Counted from the first letter of the stretch, positions 28,186-55,134 are shown. The stretch is DNA of 62,038 bases from Methyloceanibacter sp. (GCA_035715445.1 DASTKZ010000004.1:1-62038); one strand, 5' to 3'. Made by a program: numbers and translations. Notes: generated from the letters alone by a model not told the origin.

Positions 28186-28917
28186 CTACGGGCTGTTTGC
28201 GCTGACGAGATCGTCCCGCGCCTTTTCCAGATGTTGGGTGATCAGCGCGAAGGCGCCTTGCCCGTCGCGCGCGTTAAGCGCATCGAAGATGGCGCGGTGC
28301 TGGCGGTTGTAATCGGCGATGACGTCGGGAGTCAGGATCTTTTCCTTCATCGCGTCCCACTGCGCGTGAAGCCGCACATGATTGATCTGGCGGTAGACGT
28401 AGATGAGGAGCGGGTTCGACGACGCATGGGCGATGAGGAGATGGAACTCGCCGTCCCATTTCGAGAAGGAATCCTTGTCGCTCTCCGACTCTTCGGCGTG
28501 GCCGAGCACCGCCTCCATGTCGTCGAGATTGCGCCGCGTCGCATGCAGGACGGCAAGCCGCGTGGTGAAGGGCTCGACCGCAAGCCGCGCCTCGATGAGC
28601 TGGAGCGGACTGACCTGATCGGCAAGATCGATGTTCCGTCGCGCCGAGGTCACGCTCGCGCCGACGAAGGTCCCGCTGCCGAGGCGGCGTGACACGAGCC
28701 CGGCCTTCTCGAGTTGATCGAGCGCGCGCCGCACCGTGCTTCGCGCCGCCTGGAAGGTCTCGGCCAATTGCCGTTCGGGCGGCAGCCGGTCGCCCTCGCT
28801 GTAAGCGCCGGTCTCGATGGCGCGGCGGATATAGGCGGAGATGGCGCGCGGCCCCCGGCTCGGTTTTTCGAATCCTGCGGGGATGGCTTGCGCGAGTCGA
28901 AGACGCTCTTCGGTCAA
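28186..28917 (-). CDS. GntR/FadR-family transcriptional regulator (FCD domain)
   Basis: GDRLPPER.LA...RSTVRRAL..L...GSGTFV, FH..IA..S.N; TTG start after GAGGG (start uncertain). Confidence 0.9.
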   Translation of the reverse strand: MTEERLRLAQAIPAGFEKPSRGPRAISAYIRRAIETGAYSEGDRLPPERQLAETFQAARSTVRRALDQLEKAGLVSRRLGSGTFVGASVTSARRNIDLADQVSPLQLIEARLAVEPFTTRLAVLHATRRNLDDMEAVLGHAEESESDKDSFSKWDGEFHLLIAHASSNPLLIYVYRQINHVRLHAQWDAMKEKILTPDVIADYNRQHRAIFDALNARDGQGAFALITQHLEKARDDLVSANSP

Positions 28918-28947
28918 GGTCTGTCCCTCTGCACTGGAGGCCCACTT

Positions 28948-29056
28948 TGGACCCAAACGAAAAAATTGGTTTACAGCAGCTCCGCGTGATGCGCTATAGT
29001 CATCATACAAAGGTTCCTCGATTGGGTCCAGTGGTATGGGACCAAAACCGGACCAA
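28948..29056. promoter_or_regulatory. Divergent promoter region with repeated GGACC/GGTCC half-sites (putative FadR-type operators)
   Basis: TGGACCCAA (28948) and its exact inverse TTGGGTCCA (29022), then TGGTATGGGACCA and CGGACCAAT; TTTACA-N17-GCTATA lies between them. Confidence 0.55.
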
Positions 29057-29080
29057 TCCTTCCGTCGCGGGGGTGTGCCG

Positions 29081-30424
29081 ATGAGTGTCCCACAAGGTGT
29101 CAAATACGCCATCATCGGGGCGGGCGTTCACGGCCTCAGCACGGCTTTCCATCTCGCGCAAAGGCTGAAAGCGGCGGGCAGGGGCTCGGGCGCCGACATT
29201 CTCGTCGTGGACAAGACCGGCGTCGGAGCGGGCGCCTCGGGCATCGCCTGCGGTGTCGTCCGCAACAATTATTTCCAGCCGGCCATGCGCGAGTTGATGG
29301 CCCACTCCGTCGAGGTGTGGGAGAGCGATCCCAAGGCCTATTCCTACCATCCCGTGGGCTACATGCAGGTCAGCCCCGAGAGCATGCACGCCGACGTCGC
29401 CTCAATCTACGAGCAGCAGAAGGCGATCGGCTACGAGTCCACCTTCGTCGAGGGCGCGGACGATTCGATGCGATACATGCTCGGCCTGTTCGACGATTGG
29501 CAGGCGCAAGGCATCACCTCCGTGCTGCATGAAAAGCGCGGCGGCTACGCCAACAATCAGGCGAGCATGCGCGGCCTTGCCGCCAAGGCTCAAGAAGAGG
29601 GCGTGCGCATCCTCTCCGGTGTCGAAGTGAAAAGCTTCGAGTTCGGCTCAAATAGCGGGGCGGTGACCGCGCTCAACACCAATCAGGGCCGCATCGCCTG
29701 CGACACGGTCGTGGTCGGGGTCGGCCCCTGGGTCAACAAGATTTGGAACCTGCTCGAGCTGCCGAAGAAGATTACCGTCAAGGCCAACGGCAAGGTTCGC
29801 GACCACGTTCCGATGTGGAAGTTCTGGTGTCTGGAGGAAGGCACGCTCGGCGTCGATCCGCACATGCACCGGACCAATGACGGGCGCTTCCCGCCAGTGC
29901 TCCATGTCGATACCGACGCGCCGCTCTATTCCGACCGCGACCGCAAGCTCATCACCGACAAGATCTGGGGCATCTACTACAAGCCCGATTTCAACTTCGG
30001 CGGCGTTCAGGGCGGCGCTTCGCCTTACAAGGTCGAGCAGGATCCCGATCAGGTCGCGGTCGATCCTTACGGGCCCGAGTCGCCCGAGTTCGTCGTCGGC
30101 GAGGACTTCATCGAAATGTGGTGCTCGGCGCTCGCCCATTGCCAGAAGCGTTTCGAAGGCCAGATGCCGCTCTACAAGCGCGATGAGAATTCCGGGGGGC
30201 TCGGCTGCTTTACCCCGGACAATTTTCCGGTCTTCGACCGGTTCCGCGAGAACGTCTATGTCATCGCCGATTCCAACCACGGCTATAAAATGATCGGCGT
30301 CGGCAAGCTCGTGGCGCAGGAGCTCGTTGGCGAGACGAGCAGATTGCTTGAACCGTTCCGGTTCGCACGCTTTGCCAAGGGAGAACTTCATCCGACCTCT
30401 CACAGCCCGTTTCCTTGGAGTTGA
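29081..30424 (+). CDS. FAD-dependent oxidoreductase, DAO/sarcosine oxidase beta-like, stand-alone
   Basis: IIGAGVHG, GASGIACGVVRNNY (compare GNVGRNTTIVRSNY in SoxB), TPDNFP, HGYKM. Confidence 0.88.
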   Translation: MSVPQGVKYAIIGAGVHGLSTAFHLAQRLKAAGRGSGADILVVDKTGVGAGASGIACGVVRNNYFQPAMRELMAHSVEVWESDPKAYSYHPVGYMQVSPESMHADVASIYEQQKAIGYESTFVEGADDSMRYMLGLFDDWQAQGITSVLHEKRGGYANNQASMRGLAAKAQEEGVRILSGVEVKSFEFGSNSGAVTALNTNQGRIACDTVVVGVGPWVNKIWNLLELPKKITVKANGKVRDHVPMWKFWCLEEGTLGVDPHMHRTNDGRFPPVLHVDTDAPLYSDRDRKLITDKIWGIYYKPDFNFGGVQGGASPYKVEQDPDQVAVDPYGPESPEFVVGEDFIEMWCSALAHCQKRFEGQMPLYKRDENSGGLGCFTPDNFPVFDRFRENVYVIADSNHGYKMIGVGKLVAQELVGETSRLLEPFRFARFAKGELHPTSHSPFPWS

Positions 30425-30472
30425 TGAGAGCGTCGTCAGTTTCACATTTGCGGTGGTCAGCGGGAGAGTGGC

Positions 30473-31996
30473 ATGGATCGACGTGTCGAAACGAAGAAGG
30501 GAAATAGAGCGAACCGCTCGAAACCCACGGATATCGAGCAGTTCGTCGAGGCGCCGGGGCGGAGCAAGCTCGTCGCCGAAGTGCGGAAGAAGATCGATGC
30601 GCTCGGCATCGACTATCTCTATCTCCAATTCATCTCGGTCACGGGCCGGATCATGGGCAAGGGCATCCCGGCCGACCACTGGGAATCGGTGGCGGAGAAG
30701 GGCTTCCAGCTCGTCTACGGCGCCACCATGAACCTGTTCCTCAACCGGCGCGGCGAATATCTCGGCTACGGCCCGGAAGCCGCCGAACTCGTCGGCATCC
30801 CCGAGCCCGAGACCTTCATGCAGCTGCCCTGGGACAAGCGGGTGGCGCGGCTCTGGTGCACGCTGTTCCGCAACCGCGAAGAGCGCATAGATCCCGGCGC
30901 CTTCCTCACCGCGGATGCGCGCGGCAATCTCCGCCGCCTGCACGACCAGTTCCAGAAGGACCACGGGCTCCAGCTTCGTCACGGCACCGAGCCCGAGATG
31001 ATGTGGCTGAAGAAGGACGCCGACGGTCAGCCGAACGGCGGCTACTCCAACCCCTACTGCTATCACATCGATCAGTTCGAGAGCTTGCGGCCGGTCTACA
31101 TGCAGGTGATCGACTATTGCCGCAAGATGGGCCTCGACATGATCCAGGGCGACCACGAAGATTCGCCCGGCCAGCTCGAGCTCAATTTTACCTTCGACGA
31201 CGCGCTCCGGACCGCCGACCGGCTGGCGACCTACCGGCAAATCTGCGCGCAAGTCGCGCGCGAGTTCGGCATCATCGCCTGCTTTATGTGCAAGCCGTTC
31301 ATGGGCGTCTCCGCCAATGGCTGCCACCACAACATCTCGCTGTGGCGCGGCGGCAAGGACGAGCAGAAGACGCTCGGCAACGACCCCAAGAAGCTACCCG
31401 GAATGGCGCAGAACTACACCTACTCCAAGGGCGGCGTGAACACCTTCATGCCCGATACCGACGACGTTCAGCTTCCGGGCAAGATCGGCCTCATGGCAAT
31501 CGGCGGCATTGTCAAGCATCTTGGCGCGCTGACCGCGATCGGCTGCTCGACCGTGAACTCTTACCGCAGGCTGTGGGACACGGGGTTTTGGGCGCCGGTG
31601 TTCTCCGATTGGGGCTTCCAGAACCGCACCACGGGCTTGCGCGTCTCGGCGCCTGGCCGCTTCGAATACCGCGCGGTGGACGCCATGGTGAACCCGCATC
31701 TGATGGCGGCCGGGCTCATCATGGCCATGGATGACGGCATCAAGAACAAGCTCAATCCGGGGAAGCCCGAGGAGCGCAACATCTATCAGGCCATGGAGGC
31801 GGGAAAGCAGGTCAAGAGACTGCCGATGACGCTCGGCGACGCGCTTGCCGCGCTGGAGAAGGACCCGGTGATCCGTTCGGCGATGCCGGGCGAAATGTAC
31901 CGGCTCTACGACGAGTACAAGCGCGACGAGTGGGAGCGGTTCCTCCATACGACGACGGAATGGGACATCAAGACCTATCTCGACTGCCTGCCATAG
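30473..31996 (+). CDS. Glutamine synthetase-like gamma-glutamyl-amine ligase (divergent from GmaS)
   Basis: GTEPE, HEDSPGQLE, FMCKPF..NGCHH, NSYRRL, NRT, RFEYR. Confidence 0.9.
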   Translation: MDRRVETKKGNRANRSKPTDIEQFVEAPGRSKLVAEVRKKIDALGIDYLYLQFISVTGRIMGKGIPADHWESVAEKGFQLVYGATMNLFLNRRGEYLGYGPEAAELVGIPEPETFMQLPWDKRVARLWCTLFRNREERIDPGAFLTADARGNLRRLHDQFQKDHGLQLRHGTEPEMMWLKKDADGQPNGGYSNPYCYHIDQFESLRPVYMQVIDYCRKMGLDMIQGDHEDSPGQLELNFTFDDALRTADRLATYRQICAQVAREFGIIACFMCKPFMGVSANGCHHNISLWRGGKDEQKTLGNDPKKLPGMAQNYTYSKGGVNTFMPDTDDVQLPGKIGLMAIGGIVKHLGALTAIGCSTVNSYRRLWDTGFWAPVFSDWGFQNRTTGLRVSAPGRFEYRAVDAMVNPHLMAAGLIMAMDDGIKNKLNPGKPEERNIYQAMEAGKQVKRLPMTLGDALAALEKDPVIRSAMPGEMYRLYDEYKRDEWERFLHTTTEWDIKTYLDCLP

Positions 31997-32024
31997 CGGC
32001 AAGCCCGAGCAGAGGAGACAACAT

Positions 32025-32960
32025 ATGTGCGGAATTGCCGGCCTCATCCATCGCGACGGCGTGACCAATGTCGGCCGGGAGATGACGGCCATGCTGAGGA
32101 GCCTCAAGCATCGCGGTCCCGATTCGACCGGGTTCGCGATCTATGGCGCCTCCGTGCCCAATGAATATGTCATGCGCCTCAAGCTCGCCGAGCAGGAGGA
32201 CATGACGCGGGACCACCGCATCCGGCCGAAGATCAGGGAGCGCCAGGCCGAGGTCGATCGGCGCCTCGCCGAGCTCGGGGCGGAAACGGTCGAGATCGCC
32301 GAAGCCACGCCTTACGCGTTCCGCTATCGCCTGCGCTACGCCGGCGATACGCGGGGGCTCACCACCGAGATCGAACAGATCGAGGGGGCCGAAGTCCTGT
32401 CGTTCGGCTCGGCTCTCGAGCTGATCAAAGACCTTGGCGATGCGTCGGTGGTCTCCGAGCAATACGGGCTCGGCGGCTTCCGGGGCACGCACGGCATCGG
32501 GCACACGCGCATGGCGACGGAATCCGACGTCGATATTCGCTCGGCCCACCCCTACTGGGCCTATCCCTATAACGACATCGCGGTCGTGCATAACGGCCAG
32601 ATCACCAATTACTGGATCATGAGGCGCGAGATGGAGCGGCTCGGACACCGCTTCATGTCGAATTGCGATTCGGAGCTGCTCGCGGTCTACACCGCCAACA
32701 ATCTCGAGAAGGGGGCAACGCTGGAAGATTCGCTCAAAGCCTCCATCAAGGACATCGACGGCGTGTTCACCTATGTCGTGGCGACCGAGAACGAGCTCGG
32801 CATGGCCAAAGACACGATGGCGGCGAAGCCGATGGTTCTTTACGAAAGCGACAACCTCGTCGCGCTCGCCTCGGAGGAAGTCGCCATTCGCGCCATAATG
32901 CCGCGCGAGATCGACACGTACGATCCTTACGACGAGGAGATTCGCGTATGGCAGAGATAG
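32025..32960 (+). CDS. Class II glutamine amidotransferase (MgsA/GlxB-like paralog)
   Basis: N-terminal MCGIAG nucleophile, HRGPDS, GHTRMATES, HNGQI.N, DSE; AGGAG RBS. Confidence 0.92.
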   Translation: MCGIAGLIHRDGVTNVGREMTAMLRSLKHRGPDSTGFAIYGASVPNEYVMRLKLAEQEDMTRDHRIRPKIRERQAEVDRRLAELGAETVEIAEATPYAFRYRLRYAGDTRGLTTEIEQIEGAEVLSFGSALELIKDLGDASVVSEQYGLGGFRGTHGIGHTRMATESDVDIRSAHPYWAYPYNDIAVVHNGQITNYWIMRREMERLGHRFMSNCDSELLAVYTANNLEKGATLEDSLKASIKDIDGVFTYVVATENELGMAKDTMAAKPMVLYESDNLVALASEEVAIRAIMPREIDTYDPYDEEIRVWQR

Positions 32961-33820
32961 CGCGATCCGAGCTTAGCGAGCAGGAGCGCCGCTCCTACGA
33001 GATGGGGCTGCATACCGAGCCGCTCAAAGGCCGCTCGATTCAAAAATTTTTCGACGTCGATTTGAGAGACGGGCACCACGGCTTTGCGCTGCCGAACGCT
33101 TTCGAGGTCGATTTCAACAAGCGCGCCGAGATCGACGCCGGCGACCTCGAGACCAAAGCCGTCAATCTGCGCATTCGCGAATTGATGGCGGACGGCTACG
33201 GCACGATCGTGATCCGCAATCCCGGCGCCAAGCATTCGATCGCGGTCGGCATTCTGAACCGTCTCAATCTCATCATCGACGGCTCGCTCGGCTATTTCGG
33301 TTGCGGCCTGCTCGACGGGCCGAATGTGCGGATCGCGGGCCGGGTCGGCTGGTCGTGCGCCGAAAACATGATGAGCGGGATGATCCTGATCGAGAAGAAC
33401 GCTGGTTCGCAATTCGGCGCCGCCATCCGCGGCGGCGATCTCGTCTGCCGCGGCAATGTCGGCTCGCGCACTGGTATCGACCAGAAGGGCGGAACCATCA
33501 TCGTCGGCGGCGATACCGGCGCCTTCACCGGCTTCATGATGCAGCGCGGGCGCATGGTGATCTGCGGCAATGCCGGGAAGAATCTCGGCGATTCCATGTA
33601 TGACGGCACCATCTATCTCGCCGGCGAGCCGCAAAGCCTCGGCGTCGATGCCGTGTGGGGCACGATGACCGATCTCGACAAGAGTTGGCTCGAGACCAAG
33701 CTCCGCCGCTACGAGCTCTTGCCCAAGGGCGGTGTCGGCGCGTTCCGCAAGGTCGTCGCCGGCAAGCAATTGTGGAACTACGACAATCTCGAGCCGACGG
33801 AAAAGAAACTGGTGTTATGA
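32948..33820 (+). CDS. GXGXG beta-helix protein (MgsB/GlxC-like paralog) with N-terminal extension
   Basis: AENMMSG, GGTIIVGG, GDSMYDG, LWNYD; glutamate synthase C-terminal domain repeats. Confidence 0.9.
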   Translation: MAEIARSELSEQERRSYEMGLHTEPLKGRSIQKFFDVDLRDGHHGFALPNAFEVDFNKRAEIDAGDLETKAVNLRIRELMADGYGTIVIRNPGAKHSIAVGILNRLNLIIDGSLGYFGCGLLDGPNVRIAGRVGWSCAENMMSGMILIEKNAGSQFGAAIRGGDLVCRGNVGSRTGIDQKGGTIIVGGDTGAFTGFMMQRGRMVICGNAGKNLGDSMYDGTIYLAGEPQSLGVDAVWGTMTDLDKSWLETKLRRYELLPKGGVGAFRKVVAGKQLWNYDNLEPTEKKLVL

Positions 33821-33842
33821 GGCAAGAGGCTGGGCGGAAACG

Positions 33843-35228
33843 ATGAAAAAAGACAAGAACGGCAAGAACGGCAACGGCAGCGCCAGGGCGCCGGCCGAGT
33901 CCGAAAGATTCATCCTCGGCAAGAGCCAGATTTTCACGCCGGAGGTCATCAACGACATCCATGTGAAGTCGGAGCTCGGGCGCTATCGCATGCGCGGCTT
34001 CTCGCTGTTCAAGAAGATCCCGCATTGGGACGATTTGACTTTCCTGCCGGGCACGCTCACCCGCTTCGTCATCGAGGGCTATCGCGAGAAGTGCGAAACC
34101 AAGACGGTGATCGGCCCTAGGGCGAAGCGGCCGATGGTGCTCGACATTCCGGTCTATGTGACCGGCATGAGCTTCGGCGCGCTCTCCTACGAAGCCAAGA
34201 TCGCGCTTGCCCGCGGCGCCACCATGGCCGGCTCGGCCACATGCTCGGGCGAGGGCGGCATGATCCCGGACGAGCGGCGCTACTCGATCAAGTGGTTCTA
34301 TCAGTGCATCCAGTCGCGTTACGGCTTTAACCCGCATCACTTGCGCCTCGCCGACGCGTGCGAGTTCTTCATCGGACAGGGCTGCAAGGTCGGGCTTGGC
34401 GGCCATCTGATGGGACAGAAAGTGACCGACCAGGTCGCCGAGATGCGCTCGCTTCCCGCCGGCATCGATCAACGCTCGCCGGCGCGCCATCCCGACTGGC
34501 TCGGCCCCGACGATCTAGCGCTCAAGATCGAGGAAGTGCGCGAAGCGACAAACTGGGAAATTCCCATCCAGCTCAAGCTCGGCGCCGCGCGCGTCTATGA
34601 CGACGTGCGCATGGCGGTGAAATGCGGTCCCGACTCCATCTATATCGACGCCATGGAAGGCGGCACCGGCGCTGGTCCGCACATCGCGACCGAAGATACC
34701 GGCGTGCCCGGGATCGCCGCCATCCGCCAGGCGCGACGCGCCATCGACGAGCTTGGCAAGCGCGGCGAGATCAGCTTGGTCTACGCCGGCGGCATCCGCA
34801 ACGGCGGCGACGTGGCCAAGGCGATGGCGCTCGGCGCCGATGCGATCGCGATCGGTCACTCGGTGCTGATGGCGCTCAACTGCAACAAGGAGATCCCGGA
34901 GTCGGATTTCGAGAACGAGATCGGCGTTCCGGCCGGCTATTGCTATCATTGCCATACCGGGCGCTGCCCGGTCGGCGTCGCGACCCAAGATCCCGAACTC
35001 CGCAGGCGGCTCGATCCCGACGCCGCGGCCGAGCGCGTCTACAATTTCCTGCACACGCTGACGCTCGAAGCGCAGATGCTCGCGCGCGCCTGCGGCAAGA
35101 CTTCGGTGCACAGCCTCGAGCCCGAGGACCTTGCCGCGCTGACGATGGAAGCCTCGGCCATGGCGCAGGTGCCTCTGGCCGGGACCGACTACACCGTCGG
35201 CGTCGACAACTATCACAAGATCGGATGA
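33843..35228 (+). CDS. FMN-binding glutamate synthase-family protein (MgsC/GlxD-like paralog) with Fe-S cysteines
   Basis: GMSFGALS, GEGG, GGHLMGQKV, RHPDWLGPDDL, GGIRNG.D, CYHCHTGRCPVGVATQD. Confidence 0.93.
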   Translation: MKKDKNGKNGNGSARAPAESERFILGKSQIFTPEVINDIHVKSELGRYRMRGFSLFKKIPHWDDLTFLPGTLTRFVIEGYREKCETKTVIGPRAKRPMVLDIPVYVTGMSFGALSYEAKIALARGATMAGSATCSGEGGMIPDERRYSIKWFYQCIQSRYGFNPHHLRLADACEFFIGQGCKVGLGGHLMGQKVTDQVAEMRSLPAGIDQRSPARHPDWLGPDDLALKIEEVREATNWEIPIQLKLGAARVYDDVRMAVKCGPDSIYIDAMEGGTGAGPHIATEDTGVPGIAAIRQARRAIDELGKRGEISLVYAGGIRNGGDVAKAMALGADAIAIGHSVLMALNCNKEIPESDFENEIGVPAGYCYHCHTGRCPVGVATQDPELRRRLDPDAAAERVYNFLHTLTLEAQMLARACGKTSVHSLEPEDLAALTMEASAMAQVPLAGTDYTVGVDNYHKIG

Positions 35229-35241
35229 GCGGAGCACCGCC

Positions 35242-35685
35242 ATGTCCCGCAAGAACAGGAAAGACGGAAAGGGCGCCAAGGGCGCCAAGAGGTCCAAAGC
35301 CAAGGACGATATCGACAAATATTTGAAGGACGCGGGCGGACTCGACACCGCGCGCGAACAAGCGATCGGCCAGCACATCGGCTACCGCTACGACGTCAAT
35401 CTTCTTCCCGATTACGGCCGGCTCACGCCCTATCTCAAGGACTACATCGAGTTCATGGGCTGGGACGACCTCAACTGGCTCGAAGACGTGCACATGGGAT
35501 ACGAGGCGGGTCAGCCCGCGATCTTCGATCGCAACATCAATGGCTGGGTGCGCATCCCCAAAGAGATGAAGCTGCCCGACAACCAGCAGGACCGCGACAT
35601 GCTGGCGCGCGAGCTTCTGGTGCGCTTCCAGACCTCGCCCAACCATCCGCTGGTTTTGCTGAACAAGGCTTACCGAAAGTTCTGA
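35242..35685 (+). CDS. Protein of unknown function, last gene of the divergent Mgs-like operon
   Basis: GGAG RBS, 13-bp gap after the previous stop, strong GC3 bias, globular-looking aromatic/acidic core. Confidence 0.85.
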   Translation: MSRKNRKDGKGAKGAKRSKAKDDIDKYLKDAGGLDTAREQAIGQHIGYRYDVNLLPDYGRLTPYLKDYIEFMGWDDLNWLEDVHMGYEAGQPAIFDRNINGWVRIPKEMKLPDNQQDRDMLARELLVRFQTSPNHPLVLLNKAYRKF

Positions 35686-35713
35686 GCTTGCGCGGAATTG
35701 GCCGAGGCCCCGA

Positions 35714-36265
35714 TCAGGTCTCGGCCGATTTCCAATCCGGCCTGAAGCCGAGCACCAGCACGTCATCGGGCAACGAGGGATTGAACGCACGATTGTGCCA
35801 GAGCGTGACTTCTCTCAACGCTTCGCCGGCCTCCGTCTCGAACACCGCGCAAGGCAGGCGGTAGTGTTGCGAGAATTGTTCGAAGGCGAGCACGCATCTG
35901 CCATCGCGAATGAGTCTTGCCGCAAGATCCGACTGTGGGGGGAGCACCGCCGTCAGGACGTCGCCAAAGTCCCCGGGCTGCTGGAAATAGTCAGCCTGCA
36001 AATAGGTGAGGGCGCGCTGGTAGACATCGCGCGGATCGGCGGTCTTCGTCACCTGGAAGCGGAAGAAAGCCGTGCTCTCGGCCGGGTCGCGCGGAAGGAT
36101 GAGCACGGTCAGAGCCGGCGACAATTCACGGCCCGACGCATCGTGCACGTGCGGGCGCATGCCGGGCGAGGGGCGCCCTCCGTCCTGGCGCATGGCGATC
36201 TGCCGGATGCGGCATTGCCAGGCGAGGAAACCGTCGCGTAGCGTCTTGGCGGCACTTGCCGTCAT
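35714..36265 (-). CDS. Hypothetical protein
   Basis: 183-aa ORF with normal composition (FLAWQCRIRQ...WHNRAFNP) filling the gap, AGGA RBS. Confidence 0.75.
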   Translation of the reverse strand: MTASAAKTLRDGFLAWQCRIRQIAMRQDGGRPSPGMRPHVHDASGRELSPALTVLILPRDPAESTAFFRFQVTKTADPRDVYQRALTYLQADYFQQPGDFGDVLTAVLPPQSDLAARLIRDGRCVLAFEQFSQHYRLPCAVFETEAGEALREVTLWHNRAFNPSLPDDVLVLGFRPDWKSAET

Positions 36266-36363
36266 CGTAAGCGTCCTTGCGCTTGCGGCCGGCGGTCTAA
36301 TGTGGCCCGGGTCAGGCCCATTGCGGCCCCGCCAGCGATGAAAAACGCCCGGAATTTCAATCC

Positions 36364-36424
36364 TTTCCTGTCGGTAAAAGGATTTTCACGTCGATTGACG
36401 GGATTTCGGGAGAAGCCTAGCATC
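36364..36424 (+). promoter_or_regulatory. amt promoter: tandem operator boxes plus TTGACG-N17-TAGCAT
   Basis: TTTCCTGTCGGTAAA-N5-TTTCACGTCGATTGACG; aligns without gaps to the mgsA promoter through the -35. Confidence 0.65.
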
Positions 36425-36614
36425 TTCGCGGCGCAGGGGAGCAAAACTCCAAGCGAAAAAAGGGAGGGACGAGCAGCAATGCACTGTGCTGGGCGCGCAC
36501 AGGACGCATGGGTCTGCACCATCAACGAGGAAGGCAAGAACTGTAACGGCTTTCGTCCATGGGGGCGCGTCGTCGTTGACGCCTGCCGCACCGAGGCAAG
36601 AAGGGGGTATAACA

Positions 36615-38012
36615 ATGGGCGACCAACTAAATGCACTAACGACGATTTTCACCGAGTTCTATTACTGGGTGACGATCGTCATCATGTTCCTGATCCATGT
36701 CGGCTTCTGCACCTACGAAGTCGGCGTGTCGCGCAGACGCAACCATCTAAAAACGCTGATGAAGAATGCGATCGCGATTCCGGTCGTGACCGTTACCTTC
36801 TTCTTCTTCGGCTGGTGGATCTATTTTGCGTTTCCAAACGGACCGGGCATCACCGGCGGATTGATCGCGGCGCCGTTCTCCGAGCCGTGGAATCCGTTGA
36901 TGGCACCGCATCTGTCCGGCGTAAACCCAACCGAAAGTGGAGTGAGCGCGACCGACGCCCTGATCTGGCACCGTCTCAACGGCGTGTTCTGGGGCGCCTT
37001 CCTCATGTTCTCGGCCACGACCGCTTCGATCATTTCCGGCTCGATCATCGAGCGCGCCCGCTCGGGCGCCTTCTGGATCGTCGCCGTGCTGATCGGTTCG
37101 GTATTTTGGATCCTCGATGCGGCCTGGGGCTGGCACCCGCAAGGCTGGATGGTGAAGCTTTGGGGCTACCATGACGCTTATGCCTCCGGCGTCGTCCATG
37201 CCATCGCCGGCGGCGCGGTACTTGCCTTTCTGATCGTTCTCGGTCCCCGGATCGGAAAATTCCGACCCGATGGGACGCCGCGCGATATACCGCCCCACAA
37301 TGAGTGGCTCGTCACGATCGGGTTGTTCTTCATCTATACGGGCTTCTGGGGCTTCTATGCCGCGTGCAACATTCCGATCATCTCGCCCGCGACCATCGCC
37401 GGCCAGATCACCGGAGAGACCTGGACGGCGACGAATATCTATCTCGCGCCAACGTCGCTTTCGGCGATCACCTTCAACTTCATGATGTCGCTGTCGGGCG
37501 GGTTGATGGCCGGCTACATCGTCTCGAAGGGCAATCCGTTCTGGACGTTCTCATGCGGACTGTGCGGCATCATTGCCGCCTCGGCCGGCAACGATCTCTA
37601 CCATCCAGTCCAGGCGTTGCTGATCGGCGCTATCGTTCCGGTCATTGTCTACAAGCTGCACTACTGGGTCGAACGCCGGTTCAAGATCGACGATGCGGTG
37701 GGCGCGGCGGCGGTGCACGGCTATGGCGGATTCCTTGGCGTGGTCGTCGCTGGTTTCATGCTGTGGGGGCAGCCGTCCTCCCCGTATGAAGGCTTCGCGC
37801 ATATCAATCCGCTGGGAAATTTCGCCGGCGCTTGCTTGATGTGGCTGCTCGGCTTCGTTCCTATCTTCATTGCATGCAAGATCCTCGACAGTTTCGGATT
37901 GTTGCGTGTTCCGAGGAAGGTCGAGCTCGAAGGTGTCGACTTTGCCTACAACCACGCCTTCATGGAGTCGGTTCGTGAAGTGAGCGCTGCCGAAAAGGCG
38001 ATGATCAAGTAG
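36615..38012 (+). CDS. amt: Ammonium transporter family protein (non-canonical Amt, possible amine transporter)
   Basis: SIISGSIIER, GVVH and AVHG twin His, LGPRIGKF, IDDAVG; about 11 TM segments. Confidence 0.92.
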   Translation: MGDQLNALTTIFTEFYYWVTIVIMFLIHVGFCTYEVGVSRRRNHLKTLMKNAIAIPVVTVTFFFFGWWIYFAFPNGPGITGGLIAAPFSEPWNPLMAPHLSGVNPTESGVSATDALIWHRLNGVFWGAFLMFSATTASIISGSIIERARSGAFWIVAVLIGSVFWILDAAWGWHPQGWMVKLWGYHDAYASGVVHAIAGGAVLAFLIVLGPRIGKFRPDGTPRDIPPHNEWLVTIGLFFIYTGFWGFYAACNIPIISPATIAGQITGETWTATNIYLAPTSLSAITFNFMMSLSGGLMAGYIVSKGNPFWTFSCGLCGIIAASAGNDLYHPVQALLIGAIVPVIVYKLHYWVERRFKIDDAVGAAAVHGYGGFLGVVVAGFMLWGQPSSPYEGFAHINPLGNFAGACLMWLLGFVPIFIACKILDSFGLLRVPRKVELEGVDFAYNHAFMESVREVSAAEKAMIK

Positions 38013-38033
38013 ATATCCGAGAGGAGAGGAAAA

Positions 38034-38255
38034 ATGTCGACCAATGGAATGACAAGCTGGGCCGTCGACCTCAAGGATGTCGGCGCAATCTATCCCTTCC
38101 AGGGATGGGAAGTGCTAATGGTCATCCTTGGCGTTGTCTTCTGGATCGGCTGGCACATTGTCCAGACGCGCCAGGAAACCGCGGAGATCGAATCCAATCT
38201 GAAGGCCGACCGCAGCGGCGACGAAACCAGGGCGTCGATCGACCGCTACTATTAG
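38034..38255 (+). CDS. Small single-pass membrane protein (73 aa) downstream of amt
   Basis: GAGGAGAGG RBS, one TM segment (VLMVILGVVFWIGWHI), followed by a hairpin. Confidence 0.85.
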   Translation: MSTNGMTSWAVDLKDVGAIYPFQGWEVLMVILGVVFWIGWHIVQTRQETAEIESNLKADRSGDETRASIDRYY

Positions 38256-38270
38256 AAGGACTTGCATGGC

Positions 38271-38308
38271 CAGGCCCGTTAGGGACGCAATGCGCCCTGA
38301 CGGGCCTG
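38271..38308. terminator. Stem-loop between convergent genes
   Basis: CAGGCCCGTTAGGG...CCCTGACGGGCCTG inverted repeat. Confidence 0.65.
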
Positions 38309-40076: not shown

Positions 40077-41381
40077 CTAGCAGTCGAGCGTTGCGGCCCG
40101 CTCCCAGGACGAGAGATGCCCGGTATAGTCGTTCCACTCGCGCATCTTGAGCTTGACGTAGGAATCGACGAACTCGTCGCCGAGCTCCCGGCGCAGGAGC
40201 TCGGATTTCGCCGTCACGCGCAACGCGTCGAGCAGATTGAGGGGAAGCTTCTTGGTGCCGGGCGGAGCCTTGTGTCCTTCGGCGTACATGTCGATATCGA
40301 GCGGCTTGCCCGGATCGATGCTCCGCGCGATGCCGTCGAGGCCCGCGGCGAGGATCGCCGCCGGCAGCAGATACGGATTGGTGGCGCCGTCGGCGAGCCG
40401 GAACTCGAAGCGCCCGCCGCCCGGGATGCGGATCATATGCGTGCGGTTGTTGCCGGCATAGGTCACGGTGTTGGGCGACCACGTCGCGCCCGACAACGTC
40501 ACCGGCGCGTTGATACGCTTGTATGAATTCACCGTGGGATTGGTGATGGCGCAAATGTCGCCGGCGGAATTCATCAACCCGCCGATGAAGTTGTAGGCGG
40601 TGCGCGACAGGCCGAGCGCGTCCTTGCCGTCGTCGAAACTGTTCTTGTTGCCCTGCCACAGGGAGGCATGGACGTGGCAGCCGCTGCCGGTGAGATTGGC
40701 GAAAGGCTTCGGCATGAAGGTGGCGCGCAAGCCATGCTTCTCGGCTATGGCCTTGACCATGTATTTGAAGAAGGCCATGCGATCGGCGGTGACGAGCGCG
40801 TCGTCGAACGCCCAATTCATTTCGAACTGGCCGTTGGCGTCCTCGTGATCGTTCTGGTAGGCGCCCCAGCCGAGCTCGAGCATCGAATCGCAAATCTCGC
40901 TGATGACGTCATAACGGCGCATCAGCGCGGACTGGTCGTAGCAGGGCTTGGACTGCGTATCGGCGGCGTCGCTGATCGCGGCCCCGTCGGGACTCAGAAG
41001 AAAGAACTCGCACTCCACGCCGGTCTTGAGCTGGAAGCCGGCCTTTGCAGCCTTGGCGATCATCCGCTTCAAGATATTGCGCGGCGCATGCTCGACCGGC
41101 TTGCCGTTCATGTAGGGATCGGCGGCGAGCCAGCCGACTTCACGCTTCCACGGCAATTGGATCAGGCTCGCGGGATCGGGAATGGCGAGGACATCGGGGT
41201 CGGCGGGGGTCATGTCGAGCCAGCTCGCGAAACCGGCGAAACCCGCGCCGTCCTTGGCCATGTCGGCGATCGCGGCCGAGGGCGCGAGTTTTGCTCTGAG
41301 CGTGCCGAACAAATCGACATAGGAGATCAAGAAATACTTGATCCCGCGCTCTTTTGCGATCTTCGCCAAGTCCGTTGCCAT
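40077..41381 (-). CDS. gmaS: Gamma-glutamylmethylamide synthetase (GlnT-type glutamine synthetase family)
   Basis: GAGFAGFA, GVECEFFL, YQNDHEDANGQFEMNW, SGATWSP, NNRTH; directly after mgsABC. Confidence 0.92.
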   Translation of the reverse strand: MATDLAKIAKERGIKYFLISYVDLFGTLRAKLAPSAAIADMAKDGAGFAGFASWLDMTPADPDVLAIPDPASLIQLPWKREVGWLAADPYMNGKPVEHAPRNILKRMIAKAAKAGFQLKTGVECEFFLLSPDGAAISDAADTQSKPCYDQSALMRRYDVISEICDSMLELGWGAYQNDHEDANGQFEMNWAFDDALVTADRMAFFKYMVKAIAEKHGLRATFMPKPFANLTGSGCHVHASLWQGNKNSFDDGKDALGLSRTAYNFIGGLMNSAGDICAITNPTVNSYKRINAPVTLSGATWSPNTVTYAGNNRTHMIRIPGGGRFEFRLADGATNPYLLPAAILAAGLDGIARSIDPGKPLDIDMYAEGHKAPPGTKKLPLNLLDALRVTAKSELLRRELGDEFVDSYVKLKMREWNDYTGHLSSWERAATLDC

Positions 41382-41399
41382 TACCTTCTCCTCCCTGAC

Positions 41400-42728
41400 T
41401 TAAACCGAACCGCCTTGGCCCGGAATCCAGCTCGTGCCGGCAAGCGGCACCCGCGCCATGGCGGCCGACTCGACCGTGAGCGCCACGAGATCCTCGGGCT
41501 CGAGATTGTGAACGTGGCTCTTGCCGCAGGCGCGCGCGATGGTCTGCGTCTCGAGCGTCAAGACGGAAAGATAATTGGCGAGCCGCCGGCCGGCGAGAAC
41601 CGGATCGAGTCTCGCGGCGAGCGCCGTGTCCTGAGTGGTGATGCCGGCGGGGTCGCGCCCCTCATGCCAGTCGTCGTAGCAGCCGGAAGTGGTGCCGAGC
41701 TTTTGATACTCATCCTCGAGCGCGGGGTCGTTGTCGCCGAGCGCGACCAGCGCCGCGGTGCCGATCGCAACCGCGTCCGCCCCGAGCGCAAGCGCCTTGG
41801 CCACGTCGGCGCCGTTGCGAATGCCGCCGGAAACGATCAGCTGAACTTTGCGGTGCATGCCGAGGTCCTGGAGCGCATCGACCGCCGGCCGGATGGATCC
41901 GAGGATCGGCAGCCCGATATGCTCGATGAACACTTCCTGCGTGGCCGCCGTGCCTCCTTGCATGCCGTCGAGCACAATCACGTCGGCTCCGGCCTTGACG
42001 GCAAGGGCGGTGTCATAGAAGGGGCGCGAAGCGCCTACCTTGACGTAGATCGGCTTCTGCCAATCGGTGATCTCCCGGATCTCCTCGATCTTGATCTCGA
42101 GGTCGTCGGGGCCAGTCCAGTCGGGGTGACGGCAGGCCGAGCGTTGGTCGATTCCCTTAGGCAACGTCCGCATCTCGGCAACGCGATCGGAGATTTTCTG
42201 CCCGAGCAGCATGCCGCCGCCGCCGGGCTTGGCGCCCTGGCCGACCACGATCTCGATGGCATCGGCGCGGCGCAGATCGTCGGGGTTCATGCCATAGCGC
42301 GAGGGCAGCACCTGATAGACGAGGATCGTCGAGTGATGACGCTCCTCCTCGGTCATGCCGCCGTCGCCGGTCGTGGTCGAGGTGCCGACTTGCGACGCGC
42401 CGCGCCCCAACGCCTCCTTGGCCTGGGCCGAGAGCGAGCCGAAGCTCATGCCGGCGATGGTGACGGGAATCTTGATGTGGATGGGTTTCTCGGCGAACCG
42501 GGTGCCGAGCCACACATCGGTCGCGCAGCGCTCGCGATAGCCTTCGAGCGGATAGCGGCTGATCGAGGCGCCGAGGAAGAGAAGGTCGTCGAAATGCGGA
42601 ACCTTGCGCTTGGCGCCGGCGCCGCGGATATCGTAGATGCCGGTGGCGGCGGCGCGGCGGATCTCCGACAGCGCAGACGCATCGAACGTTGCTGAGGGGC
42701 GCGGAGTGGTTCGCGGCGTCCAATCCAT
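41400..42728 (-). CDS. mgsC: N-methylglutamate synthase subunit C (FMN-binding)
   Basis: GMSFGSLS, GQGAKPGGGGMLLGQK, RHPDWTGPDDL, DDWHEGRDPAGITTQD. Confidence 0.93.
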   Translation of the reverse strand: MDWTPRTTPRPSATFDASALSEIRRAAATGIYDIRGAGAKRKVPHFDDLLFLGASISRYPLEGYRERCATDVWLGTRFAEKPIHIKIPVTIAGMSFGSLSAQAKEALGRGASQVGTSTTTGDGGMTEEERHHSTILVYQVLPSRYGMNPDDLRRADAIEIVVGQGAKPGGGGMLLGQKISDRVAEMRTLPKGIDQRSACRHPDWTGPDDLEIKIEEIREITDWQKPIYVKVGASRPFYDTALAVKAGADVIVLDGMQGGTAATQEVFIEHIGLPILGSIRPAVDALQDLGMHRKVQLIVSGGIRNGADVAKALALGADAVAIGTAALVALGDNDPALEDEYQKLGTTSGCYDDWHEGRDPAGITTQDTALAARLDPVLAGRRLANYLSVLTLETQTIARACGKSHVHNLEPEDLVALTVESAAMARVPLAGTSWIPGQGGSV

Positions 42729-43417
42729 CAATAGGCTCCGGTGTGATCGACGTGGAAATTGTATAGCTTGCGCGCCGAGCCGTAACGCCGGAACTCGCCA
42801 GGGTCAATCTGGCCGTTGACGCCCGCCCGCTCCAGCACCGCATGCACGGCGCGTTTGTGCTCGTCGCGCATCGGCTTCTCGATGCAATCCGCGCCGAGAC
42901 TCCTGACCTTGCCGCGCACGAAGAGGCGCGCCTCGTAGATCGAATCGCCAAGCGCGTCGCCCGCCTCTCCGAACACGATCAAGTTGCCGGCCTGGGCCAT
43001 GAAGGCGCTCATATGGCCGACCGAACCCTGCACGACGATGTCGATTCCCTTCATGGAGATGCCGCAGCGCGAGGACGCGTTGCCGTCGATGCGGAGCAGC
43101 CCGCCGCGCCCGGTCGCGCCCGCCGATTGGCTGGCATCGCCCGTGACATGGACCAAGCCCGACATCATGTTCTCGGCCACGCCGACGCCGGCGCTGCCGT
43201 GGATCAGCACGGTCGCGTGCTTGTTCATGCCGGCGCAGTAATAGCCGACCGGGCCGTTGATCTCGACGGTGATCGGAGCATTGAGCCCGGCGGCAATGGC
43301 GTGACGCCCGGCCGGATGATCGACGATCCAGTGCCGCTCGTTGGTGTCGGGGCGGAGGCGGTGGAGCGCCGCGTTCAACTCTCTGAGCGGCGTTGAAGCG
43401 AGATCGATCTCGGGCAC
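42728..43417 (-). CDS. mgsB: N-methylglutamate synthase subunit B (GXGXG)
   Basis: GYYCAGMN, AENMMSG, RCGISMKG, GDSIYEA, YGSARKLYNF; GTG start. Confidence 0.93.
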   Translation of the reverse strand: MPEIDLASTPLRELNAALHRLRPDTNERHWIVDHPAGRHAIAAGLNAPITVEINGPVGYYCAGMNKHATVLIHGSAGVGVAENMMSGLVHVTGDASQSAGATGRGGLLRIDGNASSRCGISMKGIDIVVQGSVGHMSAFMAQAGNLIVFGEAGDALGDSIYEARLFVRGKVRSLGADCIEKPMRDEHKRAVHAVLERAGVNGQIDPGEFRRYGSARKLYNFHVDHTGAY

Positions 43418-43419
43418 AA

Positions 43420-44310
43420 TCAACGCTCCCAGAAATAGACGGTCGCGGGCTCGGGCTCCCACACCCGCGCGTTCTCGATGCCGGGCAGGCCGGCCAGCGC
43501 GCGGTATTCGGAGCCGAAGGCGACGTAACGGTCGGTCTCGGCCATCACTGCCGGCTTGCAGGCGATACCGTCGCGGAGCACGCCAAAGCCGTTCTCGGTG
43601 CCGACCACGAAGGTGTAGAAGCCGTCGAGATCGTCGAGGCTCACCGTCAGCGCGTCGCCGAGCGACTTGCCTTCGCGCATCTTCCAGCTGAGATAGCCTG
43701 CGGCAACTTCGGTGTCGTTCTCGGTGTCGAAATGGAAGCCCTCGCGCTTCAGCACGCGGCGGAGATTGTTATGGTTCGACAGCGAGCCGTTGTGCACGAG
43801 GCACTGGTCCTTGCCGGTCGAATAGGGGTGGGCGCCGTCGGTGGTCACCGCCGATTCCGTCGCCATGCGCGTATGCCCGATGGCGTGGGTGCCTTGCATC
43901 GAGGCAAGGCGGAAGCGCTCTGTGACCTCTTCGGGGCGTCCCACCTCTTTATAAACCTCGATCCTCCGCCCGCGTCCGACGAGCTCGACGCCGGGCGCCT
44001 CGCGCTCAAGCCAATCGACAAGGGCCCCGGCCGAGGCATCGGCGAGAGCGACCACGACATGGGTGTCGTGCGTCGTCGTCTTCGCGCCCGCGAAGTCCTT
44101 GGCGATCCGCGCGGCCGTTTCCTTGGCGGCGCCGGCGGAGGACGTCCGCAGCGTGAGCTTGGTTTCGCCCGCCTTGCCCGCGCCATAGACGGCGAAGCCC
44201 GCGCTGTCGGGGCCACGGTCCGACATTGTGGCGAGCATCCCGGCGGTCAGCTTGCCGAGCTCCGGTTCGAGCGAGGGGTCCTTGATGAAGAGTCCAACGA
44301 TGCCGCACAT
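43420..44310 (-). CDS. mgsA: N-methylglutamate synthase subunit A (class II amidotransferase)
   Basis: MCGIVG, RGPDSAG, GHTRMATES, HNGSLSNH, NDTE. Confidence 0.93.
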   Translation of the reverse strand: MCGIVGLFIKDPSLEPELGKLTAGMLATMSDRGPDSAGFAVYGAGKAGETKLTLRTSSAGAAKETAARIAKDFAGAKTTTHDTHVVVALADASAGALVDWLEREAPGVELVGRGRRIEVYKEVGRPEEVTERFRLASMQGTHAIGHTRMATESAVTTDGAHPYSTGKDQCLVHNGSLSNHNNLRRVLKREGFHFDTENDTEVAAGYLSWKMREGKSLGDALTVSLDDLDGFYTFVVGTENGFGVLRDGIACKPAVMAETDRYVAFGSEYRALAGLPGIENARVWEPEPATVYFWER

Positions 44311-50006: not shown

Positions 50007-51257
50007 ATGCGCTATTCGCTCGGCAGCCTCCTCGTCAACGCCGTCACCGGCAACCGGCACTGGAAGCCGCTCTGGCGCGAGCCCGAGCCCAAGCCCGCCT
50101 ACGACGTCGTGATCGTCGGCGGCGGCGGCCACGGGCTCGCCGCCGCGCACTATCTCGCCAAAGAGCACGGCATCACCAATGTCGCCGTGGTCGAGAAATC
50201 CTATCTCGGCTCGGGCAATGTCGGGCGCAACACCACCATCGTCCGCTCCAACTATCTCCTTCCCGGCAATCTTCCCTTCTACGAATGGTCGATGAAGTTG
50301 TGGGAGGGGCTCGAGCAGGACGTCAACTACAACACGATGGTGAGCCAGCGCGGGGTGCTCAATGTCTTTCACAGCGACCCGCAGCGCGACGCTTATGCGA
50401 GGCGCGGCAACGCCATGCGGCTGCACGGCGTCGATGCCGAACTGATCGACCCCGAGCAAGTGCGCGCGCTCGTCCCCTTCGTCGATTTCGACAACGCGCG
50501 CTTTCCGGTGCGGGGCGGCCTGCTGCAGCCGCGCGGGGGCACGGTCCGGCATGACGCCGTCGCCTGGGGCTACGCCCGCTCAGCCGATGAGCGCGGTGTC
50601 GACATCATCCAGAACTGTGCCGCGACCGGCTTCCGCATCGGAGGCGGCCGCGTTCTCGGCGTCGAGACCAAGAAAGGCTTCATCGCCGCCAAGAAGGTCG
50701 CGCTGTCATGCGCCGGCAACTCCTCGCGCGTCGCCGCCATGGCGGGCTTACGGCTGCCGATCGAAAGCCACTCGGTCCAGGCCTTTGTCACCGAAGGCGT
50801 GAAGCCGGTGATCGACGTGGTGATGACGTTCGGCGCCGGACATTTCTATGTCAGTCAGTCGGATAAAGGCGGGCTTGTCTTCGGCGGCGATATCGAGGGT
50901 TACAATTCCTACGCCCAACGCGGCAATCTGCCGGTGATCGAGGATGTGTGCGAGGGCGGGATGGCGCTCATGCCGGTGATCGGACGCCTGCGCATCCTGC
51001 GCTCGTGGGGCGGGCTGCTCGACATGACGATGGACGGTTCGCCGATCATCGACAAGACGCCGATCGACGGGCTCTATCTCAACGCCGGCTGGTGCTATGG
51101 CGGCTTCAAGGCGACGCCGGCATCGGGCTGGTGCTTCGCCCATCTCATCGCCACGGGCGAGCCGCATCCTTTGGCCGCCGCCTATCGTCTCGACCGCTTC
51201 GCTCAAGGCCGCGTCGTCGACGAGAAGGGCATGGGCGCGCAACCGAACCTGCACTGA
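50007..51257 (+). CDS. mgdA: N-methylglutamate dehydrogenase subunit A / sarcosine oxidase beta
   Basis: GGGGHGLA, GRNTTIVRSNY, RHDAVAWGYA, GWCYGGFKATP. mgd rather than sox is inferred from the mgs/gmaS context. Confidence 0.88.
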   Translation: MRYSLGSLLVNAVTGNRHWKPLWREPEPKPAYDVVIVGGGGHGLAAAHYLAKEHGITNVAVVEKSYLGSGNVGRNTTIVRSNYLLPGNLPFYEWSMKLWEGLEQDVNYNTMVSQRGVLNVFHSDPQRDAYARRGNAMRLHGVDAELIDPEQVRALVPFVDFDNARFPVRGGLLQPRGGTVRHDAVAWGYARSADERGVDIIQNCAATGFRIGGGRVLGVETKKGFIAAKKVALSCAGNSSRVAAMAGLRLPIESHSVQAFVTEGVKPVIDVVMTFGAGHFYVSQSDKGGLVFGGDIEGYNSYAQRGNLPVIEDVCEGGMALMPVIGRLRILRSWGGLLDMTMDGSPIIDKTPIDGLYLNAGWCYGGFKATPASGWCFAHLIATGEPHPLAAAYRLDRFAQGRVVDEKGMGAQPNLH

Positions 51258-51267
51258 GGCCGAAGCC

Positions 51268-51537
51268 ATGCGCATCACCTGTCCTTATTGCGGCGAGCGG
51301 GCGCTGGAGGAATTCACCTATCGCGGCGACGCTACGGTGAAGCGGCCCGAGAGCCTCGATCCCGGCGCTTCCGGCGCATGGGTCGACTACGTTTATCTCC
51401 GCGACAATCCGGCTGGGCTGCACAAGGAACACTGGCATCACAGCGCGGGCTGCCATTCTTGGCTCGTGGTCACGCGCAATATGAGCACGCACGAGATCGT
51501 CGCGGTCGAGCCCGCCGCGAAGGAGACTTCGAAATGA
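51268..51537 (+). CDS. mgdB: N-methylglutamate dehydrogenase subunit B / sarcosine oxidase delta
   Basis: CPYCG.R..EF, LRDNP.G, H..GC Zn motif. Confidence 0.88.
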   Translation: MRITCPYCGERALEEFTYRGDATVKRPESLDPGASGAWVDYVYLRDNPAGLHKEHWHHSAGCHSWLVVTRNMSTHEIVAVEPAAKETSK

Positions 51538-54515: not shown

Positions 54516-55134
54516 CCGCACCTTCCACGCGTCCTCCGCACTTGCGGGCCTCGCCGTTCCCGGCCGCTTCGGCAGGGAAGGGGGTGAGGCCGGCGTTGCG
54601 ATCGAAGAGCGAACCGGGCTCGGTCTCGCCACCGTCGCCGCGCGGAAGGGCGAGGCGGAAGCGCTGAAACGGGCGGTCGCGTCGGCCTACGGGGTCGAGC
54701 TTCCCGATCGCTCGCGCGCCGTGCACGGGCCGTCGGTGAGCTTTATCGGCTACGGGCCCGGGCAATGGCTTGCCGTGTCGGAAGCGTTTGCCGGCGAGGC
54801 GCTTGCGCGCGAACTCGGCGAACGCCTGCGCGGGCTCGCCTCGATCTCCGATCAGAGCGGCGGCCGGACGGTGCTGCGCGTGAGCGGGCCTTACGCCCAC
54901 GCCGTGCTCGCCAAAGGCCTGCCGATCGACCTTCATCCGCGCGCCTTCGAAACCGGAAGCGCCGCGACCAGCACGATCTCGCTCATGGGCGTGCAGATTT
55001 GGCAGGTCGATGACGCGCCTACCTACGACCTTGCGATCTTCCGCAGCGTTTCGGCGAGCTTTTGGCGCTGGCTGACCGCCTCGGCGGGAGAGTTCGGCTA
55101 CACGGTGGCGAAGGGCGGAAGCCGGCCGCAATAG
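54508..55134 (+). CDS. mgdD: N-methylglutamate dehydrogenase subunit D / sarcosine oxidase gamma
   Basis: GPGQWL, DQS, VLAKG.PIDLHP, RS.S.SFW.WL; GTG start overlapping mgdC. Confidence 0.88.
   Translation: MPSRTFHASSALAGLAVPGRFGREGGEAGVAIEERTGLGLATVAARKGEAEALKRAVASAYGVELPDRSRAVHGPSVSFIGYGPGQWLAVSEAFAGEALARELGERLRGLASISDQSGGRTVLRVSGPYAHAVLAKGLPIDLHPRAFETGSAATSTISLMGVQIWQVDDAPTYDLAIFRSVSASFWRWLTASAGEFGYTVAKGGSRPQ

Follow-up and report, generated by a model that had tools for sequence, protein, structure and literature searches.

A divergent gene module for glutamate-mediated amine catabolism, likely acting on dimethylamine, in Methyloceanibacter sp.

We analyzed a 62,038-nucleotide stretch of DNA from Methyloceanibacter sp. 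(GCA_035715445.1 DASTKZ010000004.1:1-62038; the window), in which positions 28186 to 38308 hold a gene cluster built around a glutamine synthetase (GS)-like ligase and the separate parts of a glutamate synthase (GOGAT)-like enzyme. We read this cluster, the module, as a distinct form of amine breakdown by way of glutamate, and its substrate is likely dimethylamine (DMA), which it would remove in place of the DMA monooxygenase DmmABCD. By phylogeny it is a separate sister system outside the clades of GmaS and MgsC, the ligase and a synthase subunit of the canonical N-methylglutamate pathway. The chemistry that we propose overall, through N,N-dimethylglutamate, is more tentative than the substrate.

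The evidence for DMA comes chiefly from distribution. Trimethylamine monooxygenase (Tmm), trimethylamine N-oxide (TMAO) demethylase (Tdm) and a TMAO permease, each scoring above its NCBIfam cut-off, are recurring neighbors of the module. Because Tdm makes DMA, the idea of a DMA substrate was put to the test. In a class sample of 301 alphaproteobacterial genomes, with a strong DmmC-type match defined as 200 bits or more, the module was found in 24 genomes, Tdm in 20 and both in 15; 19 genomes gave strong DmmC-type matches, and none of them had the module. A family sample comprised 251 genomes of one alphaproteobacterial family, one per genus. Here a full DmmC-type match needed at least 213 bits, whereas a ubiquitous paralogue does not exceed 198, and a full Tdm at least 790 bits, by which 60 of 67 Tdm-like genomes were counted and 7 weaker ones excluded. 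The module (24 genomes) and the full DmmC-type gene (36 genomes) never overlapped. The 60 Tdm genomes divide into 33 with a whole DmmC, 2 with a DmmC split over contig ends, 23 with the module, one with a ligase plus P450 arrangement (G456) and one with neither module nor Dmm (G463). The expected overlap between module and Dmm in this set is 13.4 and the overlap seen is 0 (P 1e-14, ignoring kinship), a complementary distribution as expected for a DMA-degrading enzyme. A direct DmmC query against 10 of the 24 module genomes returned 27-30% paralogues or nothing and no orthologue in any of the 10, and DmmA (NF041259) was confirmed beside one DmmC-type gene (PF11927, long type). Module and Tdm lie within 11.5 kb of each other in 18 of the 23 genomes with both, and on separate contigs in the other five. 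The genome of the window (96.7% complete) carries Tdm on a 2.3-kb contig, C61, and gave no DmmC, DmmA or Tmm match. An RpoB tree was built from 48 labeled genomes (22 of the 24 module and 26 of the 36 Dmm genomes; those left out had no usable rpoB or went unsearched, and G379 was dropped for its long branch). In it the module and Dmm labels are clustered, and 8 swaps are needed, at least 4 of them on well-supported branches.

The module is also a conserved unit. We pooled 198 ligase loci, which are mutually non-independent, and 114 of these have enough flanking DNA to be called well covered. In a gene-neighborhood survey of the kind proposed in the preliminary description of this DNA, a five-gene core (ligase, amidotransferase, GXGXG subunit, FMN/iron-sulfur (Fe-S) subunit and a 147-aa orphan protein) was intact and in the same order in 112 of the 114, which argues against a chance arrangement; in the remaining two a P450 gene stands in place of the amidotransferase, GXGXG, FMN and 147-aa genes. 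The flavoprotein gene occurs in 92 of the 114 loci, an adjoining GntR/FCD regulator in 90, the 183-aa gene in 80, amt in 51, tdm in 50 and the 73-aa gene in 43, and gmaS adjoins the module in 30. The features of the window are as follows.

28186..28917, minus strand: GntR/FCD (FadR-type) regulator, divergent (Pfam GntR and FCD; start uncertain, TTG at 28917 taken)
28965..28975, plus strand: conserved intergenic motif ATTGGTTTACA, kept in 59 of 68 close and 2 of 34 distant loci
29081..30424, plus strand: DAO-family flavoprotein (PF01266), accessory
30473..31996, plus strand: GS-fold (GS-like) predicted amine ligase, core
32025..32960, plus strand: class II amidotransferase (MgsA/GltB1-like) with HTRMATES and HNG motifs, core
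32948..33820, plus strand: GXGXG beta-helix subunit (MgsB/GltB3-like; PF01493), core
33843..35228, plus strand: FMN subunit (MgsC/GltB2-like; PF01645), core
35242..35685, plus strand: 147-aa orphan protein, core
35714..36265, minus strand: 183-aa predicted split-barrel (PNPOx-like) flavin-binding protein, accessory
36615..38012, plus strand: atypical Amt-family transporter (PF00909; under the TIGR00836 cut-off)
38034..38255, plus strand: 73-aa membrane protein that trails this Amt type
40077..44310, minus strand: canonical mgsABC-gmaS, context (GmaS 661 bits on TIGR03105, cut-off 469.6)
50007..55134, plus strand: mgdABCD/soxBDAG-type dehydrogenase, context (TIGR01373 and TIGR01372 passed; soxG match under its cut-off)

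The regulator, operon genes, Amt and small protein named in the preliminary description are all present and intact, although its gene list missed the conserved minus-strand 183-aa gene between the operon and amt. The operon is as tight as it had stated, with gaps of 48, 28, -13, 22 and 13 bp from flavoprotein to orphan. Its claim of clearly different paralogs in the canonical operon also stands, with identities of 29% for ligase and GmaS, 34% for amidotransferase and MgsA, 33% for the GXGXG subunit and MgsB, and 51% for the FMN subunit and MgsC.

The ligase fails two family models, with 300 bits on TIGR03105 (GmaS/GlnT type III) and 239 bits, against a cut-off of 429, on GlnA. In the ligase tree, 22 module ligases form their own clade (100/98) and 8 GmaS sequences another, and the outgroups of the module clade are P450-linked plasmid ligases, not GmaS. 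Sister ligases (40-56% identity) share plasmids of Ruegeria, Paracoccus, Rhodococcus and Gordonia with genes for P450s, ABC transporters and gamma-glutamyl hydrolases. The window GmaS, which has the motif YDDWHEGRD, is close to PDB 7CQL, and through it we mapped the residues of RhGmaS (PMC7948447) onto 117 ligases. The catalytic and amine-site positions (K30', Y147, Q175, D177, E179, E186, N188), like those that bind Mg and glutamate, are kept in 117 of 117 and R327 in 115. The pocket shell differs from that of GmaS (A48'V, Y174I, G231A, H237N), and the flap loop is five residues shorter. With catalytic residues kept and the pocket shell changed, the protein is predicted to ligate an amine actively, in a pocket unlike that of GmaS. 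For RhGmaS the Km is 27 uM with methylamine and 58 uM with ethylamine but 16 mM with DMA, for which it is a poor ligase (PMC7948447), so that a cell using this route would need a ligase for DMA and not one for ethylamine. We infer that the module ligase is a gamma-glutamyl-dimethylamide synthetase, as predicted from these features. The earlier suggestion that the module handles an amine other than methylamine is likely to hold, but its proposal of ethylamine or another primary amine fits poorly with the Km of GmaS and with a module that tracks Tdm and excludes Dmm.

Three variants of the ligase locus carry a P450 gene directly after the ligase and no synthase genes (L076:10001-12729, L084:10001-12725 and L244:15780-18494, the last from G456). 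They adjoin TMAO permease, tmm/tdm or mgs/mgd genes, their P450s are 52-53% identical to a Gordonia pGKT2 P450, and the arrangement arose twice in the ligase tree. This would fit a dimethylamide demethylated to the product of GmaS, and the variants possibly represent a third DMA route. Amine pathways that combine gamma-glutamylation with a P450 include Ipu (isopropylamine) and the PipA/CYP151-linked GS-like genes. The P450-linked ligases are the nearest relatives outside the module clade, whereas the main module uses a GltB-like synthase instead of a P450 and hydrolase. We also observed an amt-gmaS-P450 block at L263, L264 and L268 (G377, G334 and G356), in genomes without canonical mgsABC; its P450 is about 41-44% identical to the others, and it is possibly an oxidative route from gamma-glutamylmethylamide.

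The synthase genes follow the three-gene MgsABC pattern of a class II amidotransferase with Cys1, a GXGXG subunit and an FMN GltB2 subunit, and the amidotransferase begins with Met-Cys in 98 of 103 extracted copies. In the FMN subunit, cysteines C347, C367, C370 and C375 are invariant and align with the GltB cysteine region; CxxCx4C is present in 165 of 165 copies, and the four residues are predicted to bind an Fe-S cluster. A tree of 15 module FMN subunits and 13 MgsC sequences, which left out cysteine-bearing MgsC, resolved them as sister clades (99, 100). Compared with the N-methylglutamate pathway (GmaS, MgsABC and MgdABCD), the module shares a ligase with a three-piece GltB-like enzyme, the GmaS catalytic residues and the amidotransferase Cys1 and motifs, and the two are often adjacent. 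It differs in its separate clades, in its order (ligase first), in the extra constant 147-aa gene, in its regulator (GntR rather than XRE) and in a distribution tied to Tdm and to the absence of Dmm. GltB (PDB 7MFM, 1EA0) together with GS likewise offers amidotransferase, FMN and GXGXG domains, whereas in the module the subunits are split, a GltD partner is missing, the cysteine motif contains a 19-residue insert and the signature is that of an amine ligase.

We rejected the Fe-S motif as a unique mark of the module. The window MgsC lacks the cysteines, but 9 of 24 MgsC sequences keep them, so the motif is ancestral. MgsC orthologues that keep them (L109, L111, L113, L116, L284, L285, L315 and L317) are 73-75% identical to the window MgsC, and the Asp-substituted MgsC form is one sub-lineage. 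A third Mgs-like type was seen beside gmaS at L250:7433-11963 (G097), with a GXGXG-FMN fusion (a frame of about 680 aa), the motif CxxCxxCx4C and then an 874-aa GltD-like Fe-S flavoprotein frame. Similar matches at 40-45% occur in at least 15 genomes of the class sample, and the likely function of this type is that of an N-methylglutamate synthase driven by NAD(P)H. No canonical MgsC turned up in the module genomes G377 (one contig, 100% complete), G379, G425, G334 and G213. In four of these five gmaS adjoins the module, and 9 of 13 low-GC loci run from module to gmaS with no mgsABC between. This suggests that where mgsABC is missing the module synthase probably also accepts gamma-glutamylmethylamide from GmaS.

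We hypothesize a mechanism modeled on GS/GOGAT and GmaS/Mgs (PMC6237917). The ligase would spend ATP to trap DMA as gamma-glutamyl-dimethylamide. The amidotransferase would set DMA free from this amide and pass it to the FMN subunit. There DMA would add to 2-oxoglutarate, and the resulting iminium would be reduced to N,N-dimethylglutamate with electrons supplied via the Fe-S cluster. Demethylation by MgdABCD or by the accessory flavoprotein would follow, yielding formaldehyde or methylene-tetrahydrofolate and leaving glutamate; the mgdABCD/soxBDAG-type dehydrogenase of the window is the likely downstream step. The module would thereby act at the step of DmmABCD (PMC5520151), DMA removal after Tdm, and it takes the same place in methylated-amine gene islands. 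It differs from DmmABCD in having no sequence relationship, no core oxygenase and a predicted ATP-dependent capture, and the two never occur together in the genomes searched.

The same arrangement can be followed into SAR11, the bacteria most abundant in the ocean. In Pelagibacter HTCC1062 the annotated genes are 1302 opuAC, 1303 gcvT-like, 1304 monomeric sox, 1305 glnT, 1308 gltB2, 1309 hypothetical, 1310 amt, 1313-1315 glxBCD, 1316 glnT and 1317 diaminopropionate ammonia-lyase, and the available portions of the same papers assign no pathway to SAR11_1304-1310 (PMC3160333, PMC3870248, PMC2704228, PMC5069961). Marine metagenome contigs of 32-36% GC repeat this order from a TMAO-binding protein to the diaminopropionate ammonia-lyase, with the module in the 1304-1310 position, and tdm is present in 28 of 31 such low-GC contigs with enough upstream DNA. 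From this likeness in gene order and neighbors we infer that the module corresponds to SAR11_1304-1310, with a 1304-like flavoprotein and a 1309-like 147-aa protein. In the low-GC marine loci tdm is followed by a 116-aa gene without an NCBIfam match (L283:8174-8524, L308:2420-2767). All SAR11 lack dmmDABC (PMC5520151) and their DMA route has been called an open question (PMC3870248), while HTCC1062 grows on TMAO as sole nitrogen source and an unknown Dmm isoenzyme or replacement has been postulated (PMC8918994). Under nitrogen limitation the presumed SAR11 ligase fell to 0.67x and the FMN subunit to 0.66x, and the flavoprotein alone rose (PMC3870248), which weakens the earlier suggestion that the module scavenges nitrogen. 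The locus tags gave no matches in the supplements of that paper as available.

The preliminary description had paralleled the flavoprotein with mgdA. This did not hold up: the protein is only 24-25% identical to MgdA over about 200 residues, scores 63 bits on the SoxB model TIGR01373 (cut-off 529; MgdA 691) and stands alone, without linked D, A or G subunits of the MgdA/SoxB heterotetramer. A genome-wide search, run without a positive control, did not find it in five of five module genomes that lack it locally (97-100% complete). It is accessory and dispensable, and possibly an N-demethylase. An 804-aa DMGDH-like subfamily occurs in 6 loci, all without the flavoprotein, and was rejected as its substitute, since genome-wide it is found in 4 of 8 module genomes that lack the flavoprotein, in 5 of 17 that have it and in 6 of 10 with Dmm. 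A divergent mgdA/mgdC-like pair (41-44% and 35-38% identical to those of the window) recurs near the module at L021, L071, L084, L132 and L361 and is a candidate demethylase for the module product. The 147-aa protein has no Pfam or NCBIfam match, no PDB fold match and no Atlas match (model confidence, pLDDT, 73.6). It is matched by 312 cluster representatives, many of them fragments, and a predicted complex with the FMN subunit scored 0.00, which counts neither way. The model of the 183-aa protein (pLDDT 96.7) has Rv2074 and PNPOx-like proteins as best folds (E 3e-4, TM about 0.4). The protein is predicted to be a split-barrel flavin-binding protein and may be an electron shuttle; its gene was found in 0 of 57 low-GC marine loci.

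Several observations weigh against this reading. On the side of distribution, 9 of the 24 class-sample module genomes gave no Tdm match, G463 has Tdm with neither module nor Dmm, and the score limits follow gaps seen in the data, between 213 and 198 bits for DmmC and between 790 and 655 bits for Tdm. A sign test corrected for kinship, with 4 supported pairs, gave p 0.125. On the side of chemistry, the Fe-S motif is shared with some MgsC, the flavoprotein is missing from 22 of the 114 loci so that no demethylase is constantly linked, and its DMGDH-like substitute failed the genome-wide test. Likewise, 6 of the 112 core loci have neither the flavoprotein nor the split-barrel gene, leaving no constant electron donor. 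Of 10 module genomes selected because they lack canonical MgsC, 5 gave no GmaS, and the search for Mgd in G213 returned no clear match beyond a 56% SoxB-type one. The literature found on dimethylglutamate is mammalian, judged by title alone. The link to SAR11 is one of gene order, and the opposite responses of its presumed ligase and FMN genes and of its flavoprotein gene indicate that in SAR11 these genes are not under joint control.

Some of these points would be accommodated by the same substrate with another chemistry, which we consider somewhat unlikely though still part of the case for DMA. Here the ligase would trap DMA, and either the FMN/Fe-S enzyme would be oxidative, its electrons leaving through the Fe-S cluster, or the amide itself would be demethylated. 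The products would be formaldehyde with methylamine, gamma-glutamylmethylamide or N-methylglutamate directly. The lack of a constantly linked demethylase, the ligase plus P450 variants, which imply demethylation at the amide stage, and the frequent adjacency of gmaS all speak for it. However, the chemistry described for GltB-fold FMN domains is the reduction of imines or transamination with 2-oxoglutarate, and they are not known to oxidize N-methyl groups (PMC6237917). The module could instead be a second methylamine system with no role in DMA, in which a ligase of its own feeds a reductive, Fe-S-dependent N-methylglutamate synthase that is used for carbon or energy or is regulated in another way. 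The five module genomes without canonical MgsC, the low-GC loci that pass from module to gmaS and the retained amine-binding residues Y147, Q175, D177, E186 and N188 agree with such a role. We nevertheless find it improbable, as it leaves the DmmC exclusion and the tie to Tdm unexplained, 15 of 24 family-sample module genomes keep canonical MgsC, GmaS is kept beside the ligase and the presumed SAR11 core went down under nitrogen limitation (PMC3870248).

A different amine altogether (ethylamine, a cyclic amine or other) is more improbable still. The plasmid-borne sister ligases with their P450s, transporters and hydrolases, the module genomes without Tdm and the repeated presence of PhyH, CN-hydrolase and MBL genes near the module would suit it, but GmaS already covers ethylamine (PMC7948447), and the clusters found show no recurring aldehyde dehydrogenase and no amine transporter beyond TMAO and methylamine types. 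The public names of the ligase, glutamine synthetase, together with its GS fold, the GltB-like parts, the Fe-S motif and the Amt, could suggest an extra ammonium-assimilating GS with a split GOGAT. This is very unlikely: the ligase falls far short of the GlnA cut-off, has Val at the place of the GS ammonium-site Asp and Trp in the flap (GFWAP) where GlnA of its own genome has Glu (GYEAP), and separate GlnA-like and GltB genes are present in the genome.

The ATTGGTTTACA motif occurs about 0 times in shuffles and once in the window, and is likely an operator or -35 element. Immediately 5' of the flavoprotein gene, at 29022-29054, we observed an imperfect inverted repeat, TTGGGTCC...GGGACCAA, and more GGACCAA copies, which are possible GntR sites by sequence. 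A promoter and terminator scan gave signal at chance level. The Amt and small protein listed in the preliminary description do not belong to the module alone, since a 64-65% homologue of this Amt and the 73-aa gene also accompany mgsABC-gmaS in Dmm genomes (L183, L184); they are part of methylamine islands generally. Between the two operons of the window lie an NhaD-like transporter (38328-39569; 75% paralogue on contig C12) and a GNAT gene (39612-40067), the latter found again in that position in 11 of 84 loci, and a tandem pair of Kef-type Na/H-exchanger/TrkA-N genes occupies 57224-60772. A Nit1/omega-amidase-like CN hydrolase, often directly 3' of the 147-aa gene, was seen in 28 of the 114 loci (among them L049:6125-6988 and L167-L182; contig C73 in the genome of the window) and may serve repair or amide hydrolysis.

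The module is common. A search that scored 7,996 candidates gave 3,125 relatives of the ligase at E<=1e-100, one marine module type accounts for an estimated 2,000 metagenome stretches, and 516 stretches of species-level genomes match the module; among the best 80 of these, which were taken for comparison, the nearest named relatives are Methyloceanibacter metagenome-assembled genomes. The 147-aa family is carried by 3 of 201 phylum-sample genomes, too few to speak for Gammaproteobacteria. In four soil RNA libraries contigs span nearly all bins, for which a DNA origin is possible. In agreement with the preliminary description, which knew of no characterization, we found no functional description of the module in the literature searched, which mostly excluded subscription papers, and the available portions of PMC7574528 and PMC9699525 do not mention it.

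Together, these results make the module a concrete and testable candidate for the postulated Dmm replacement. We speculate, with some reservation, that it is the missing DMA pathway of SAR11 and of many alphaproteobacteria from sea and soil: a route driven by ATP and free of oxygenases, via gamma-glutamyl-dimethylamide and N,N-dimethylglutamate, with a four-subunit Fe-S synthase of which one subunit has a new fold. From the absence of dmmDABC in SAR11 and many marine bacteria, a marine bottleneck at DMA, tied to DMA-rich aerosols, has been proposed (PMC5520151). If our reading is true, that bottleneck would be overturned, DMA-degrading potential would have been undercounted so far, and a secondary-amine ligase useful in biocatalysis would be added.

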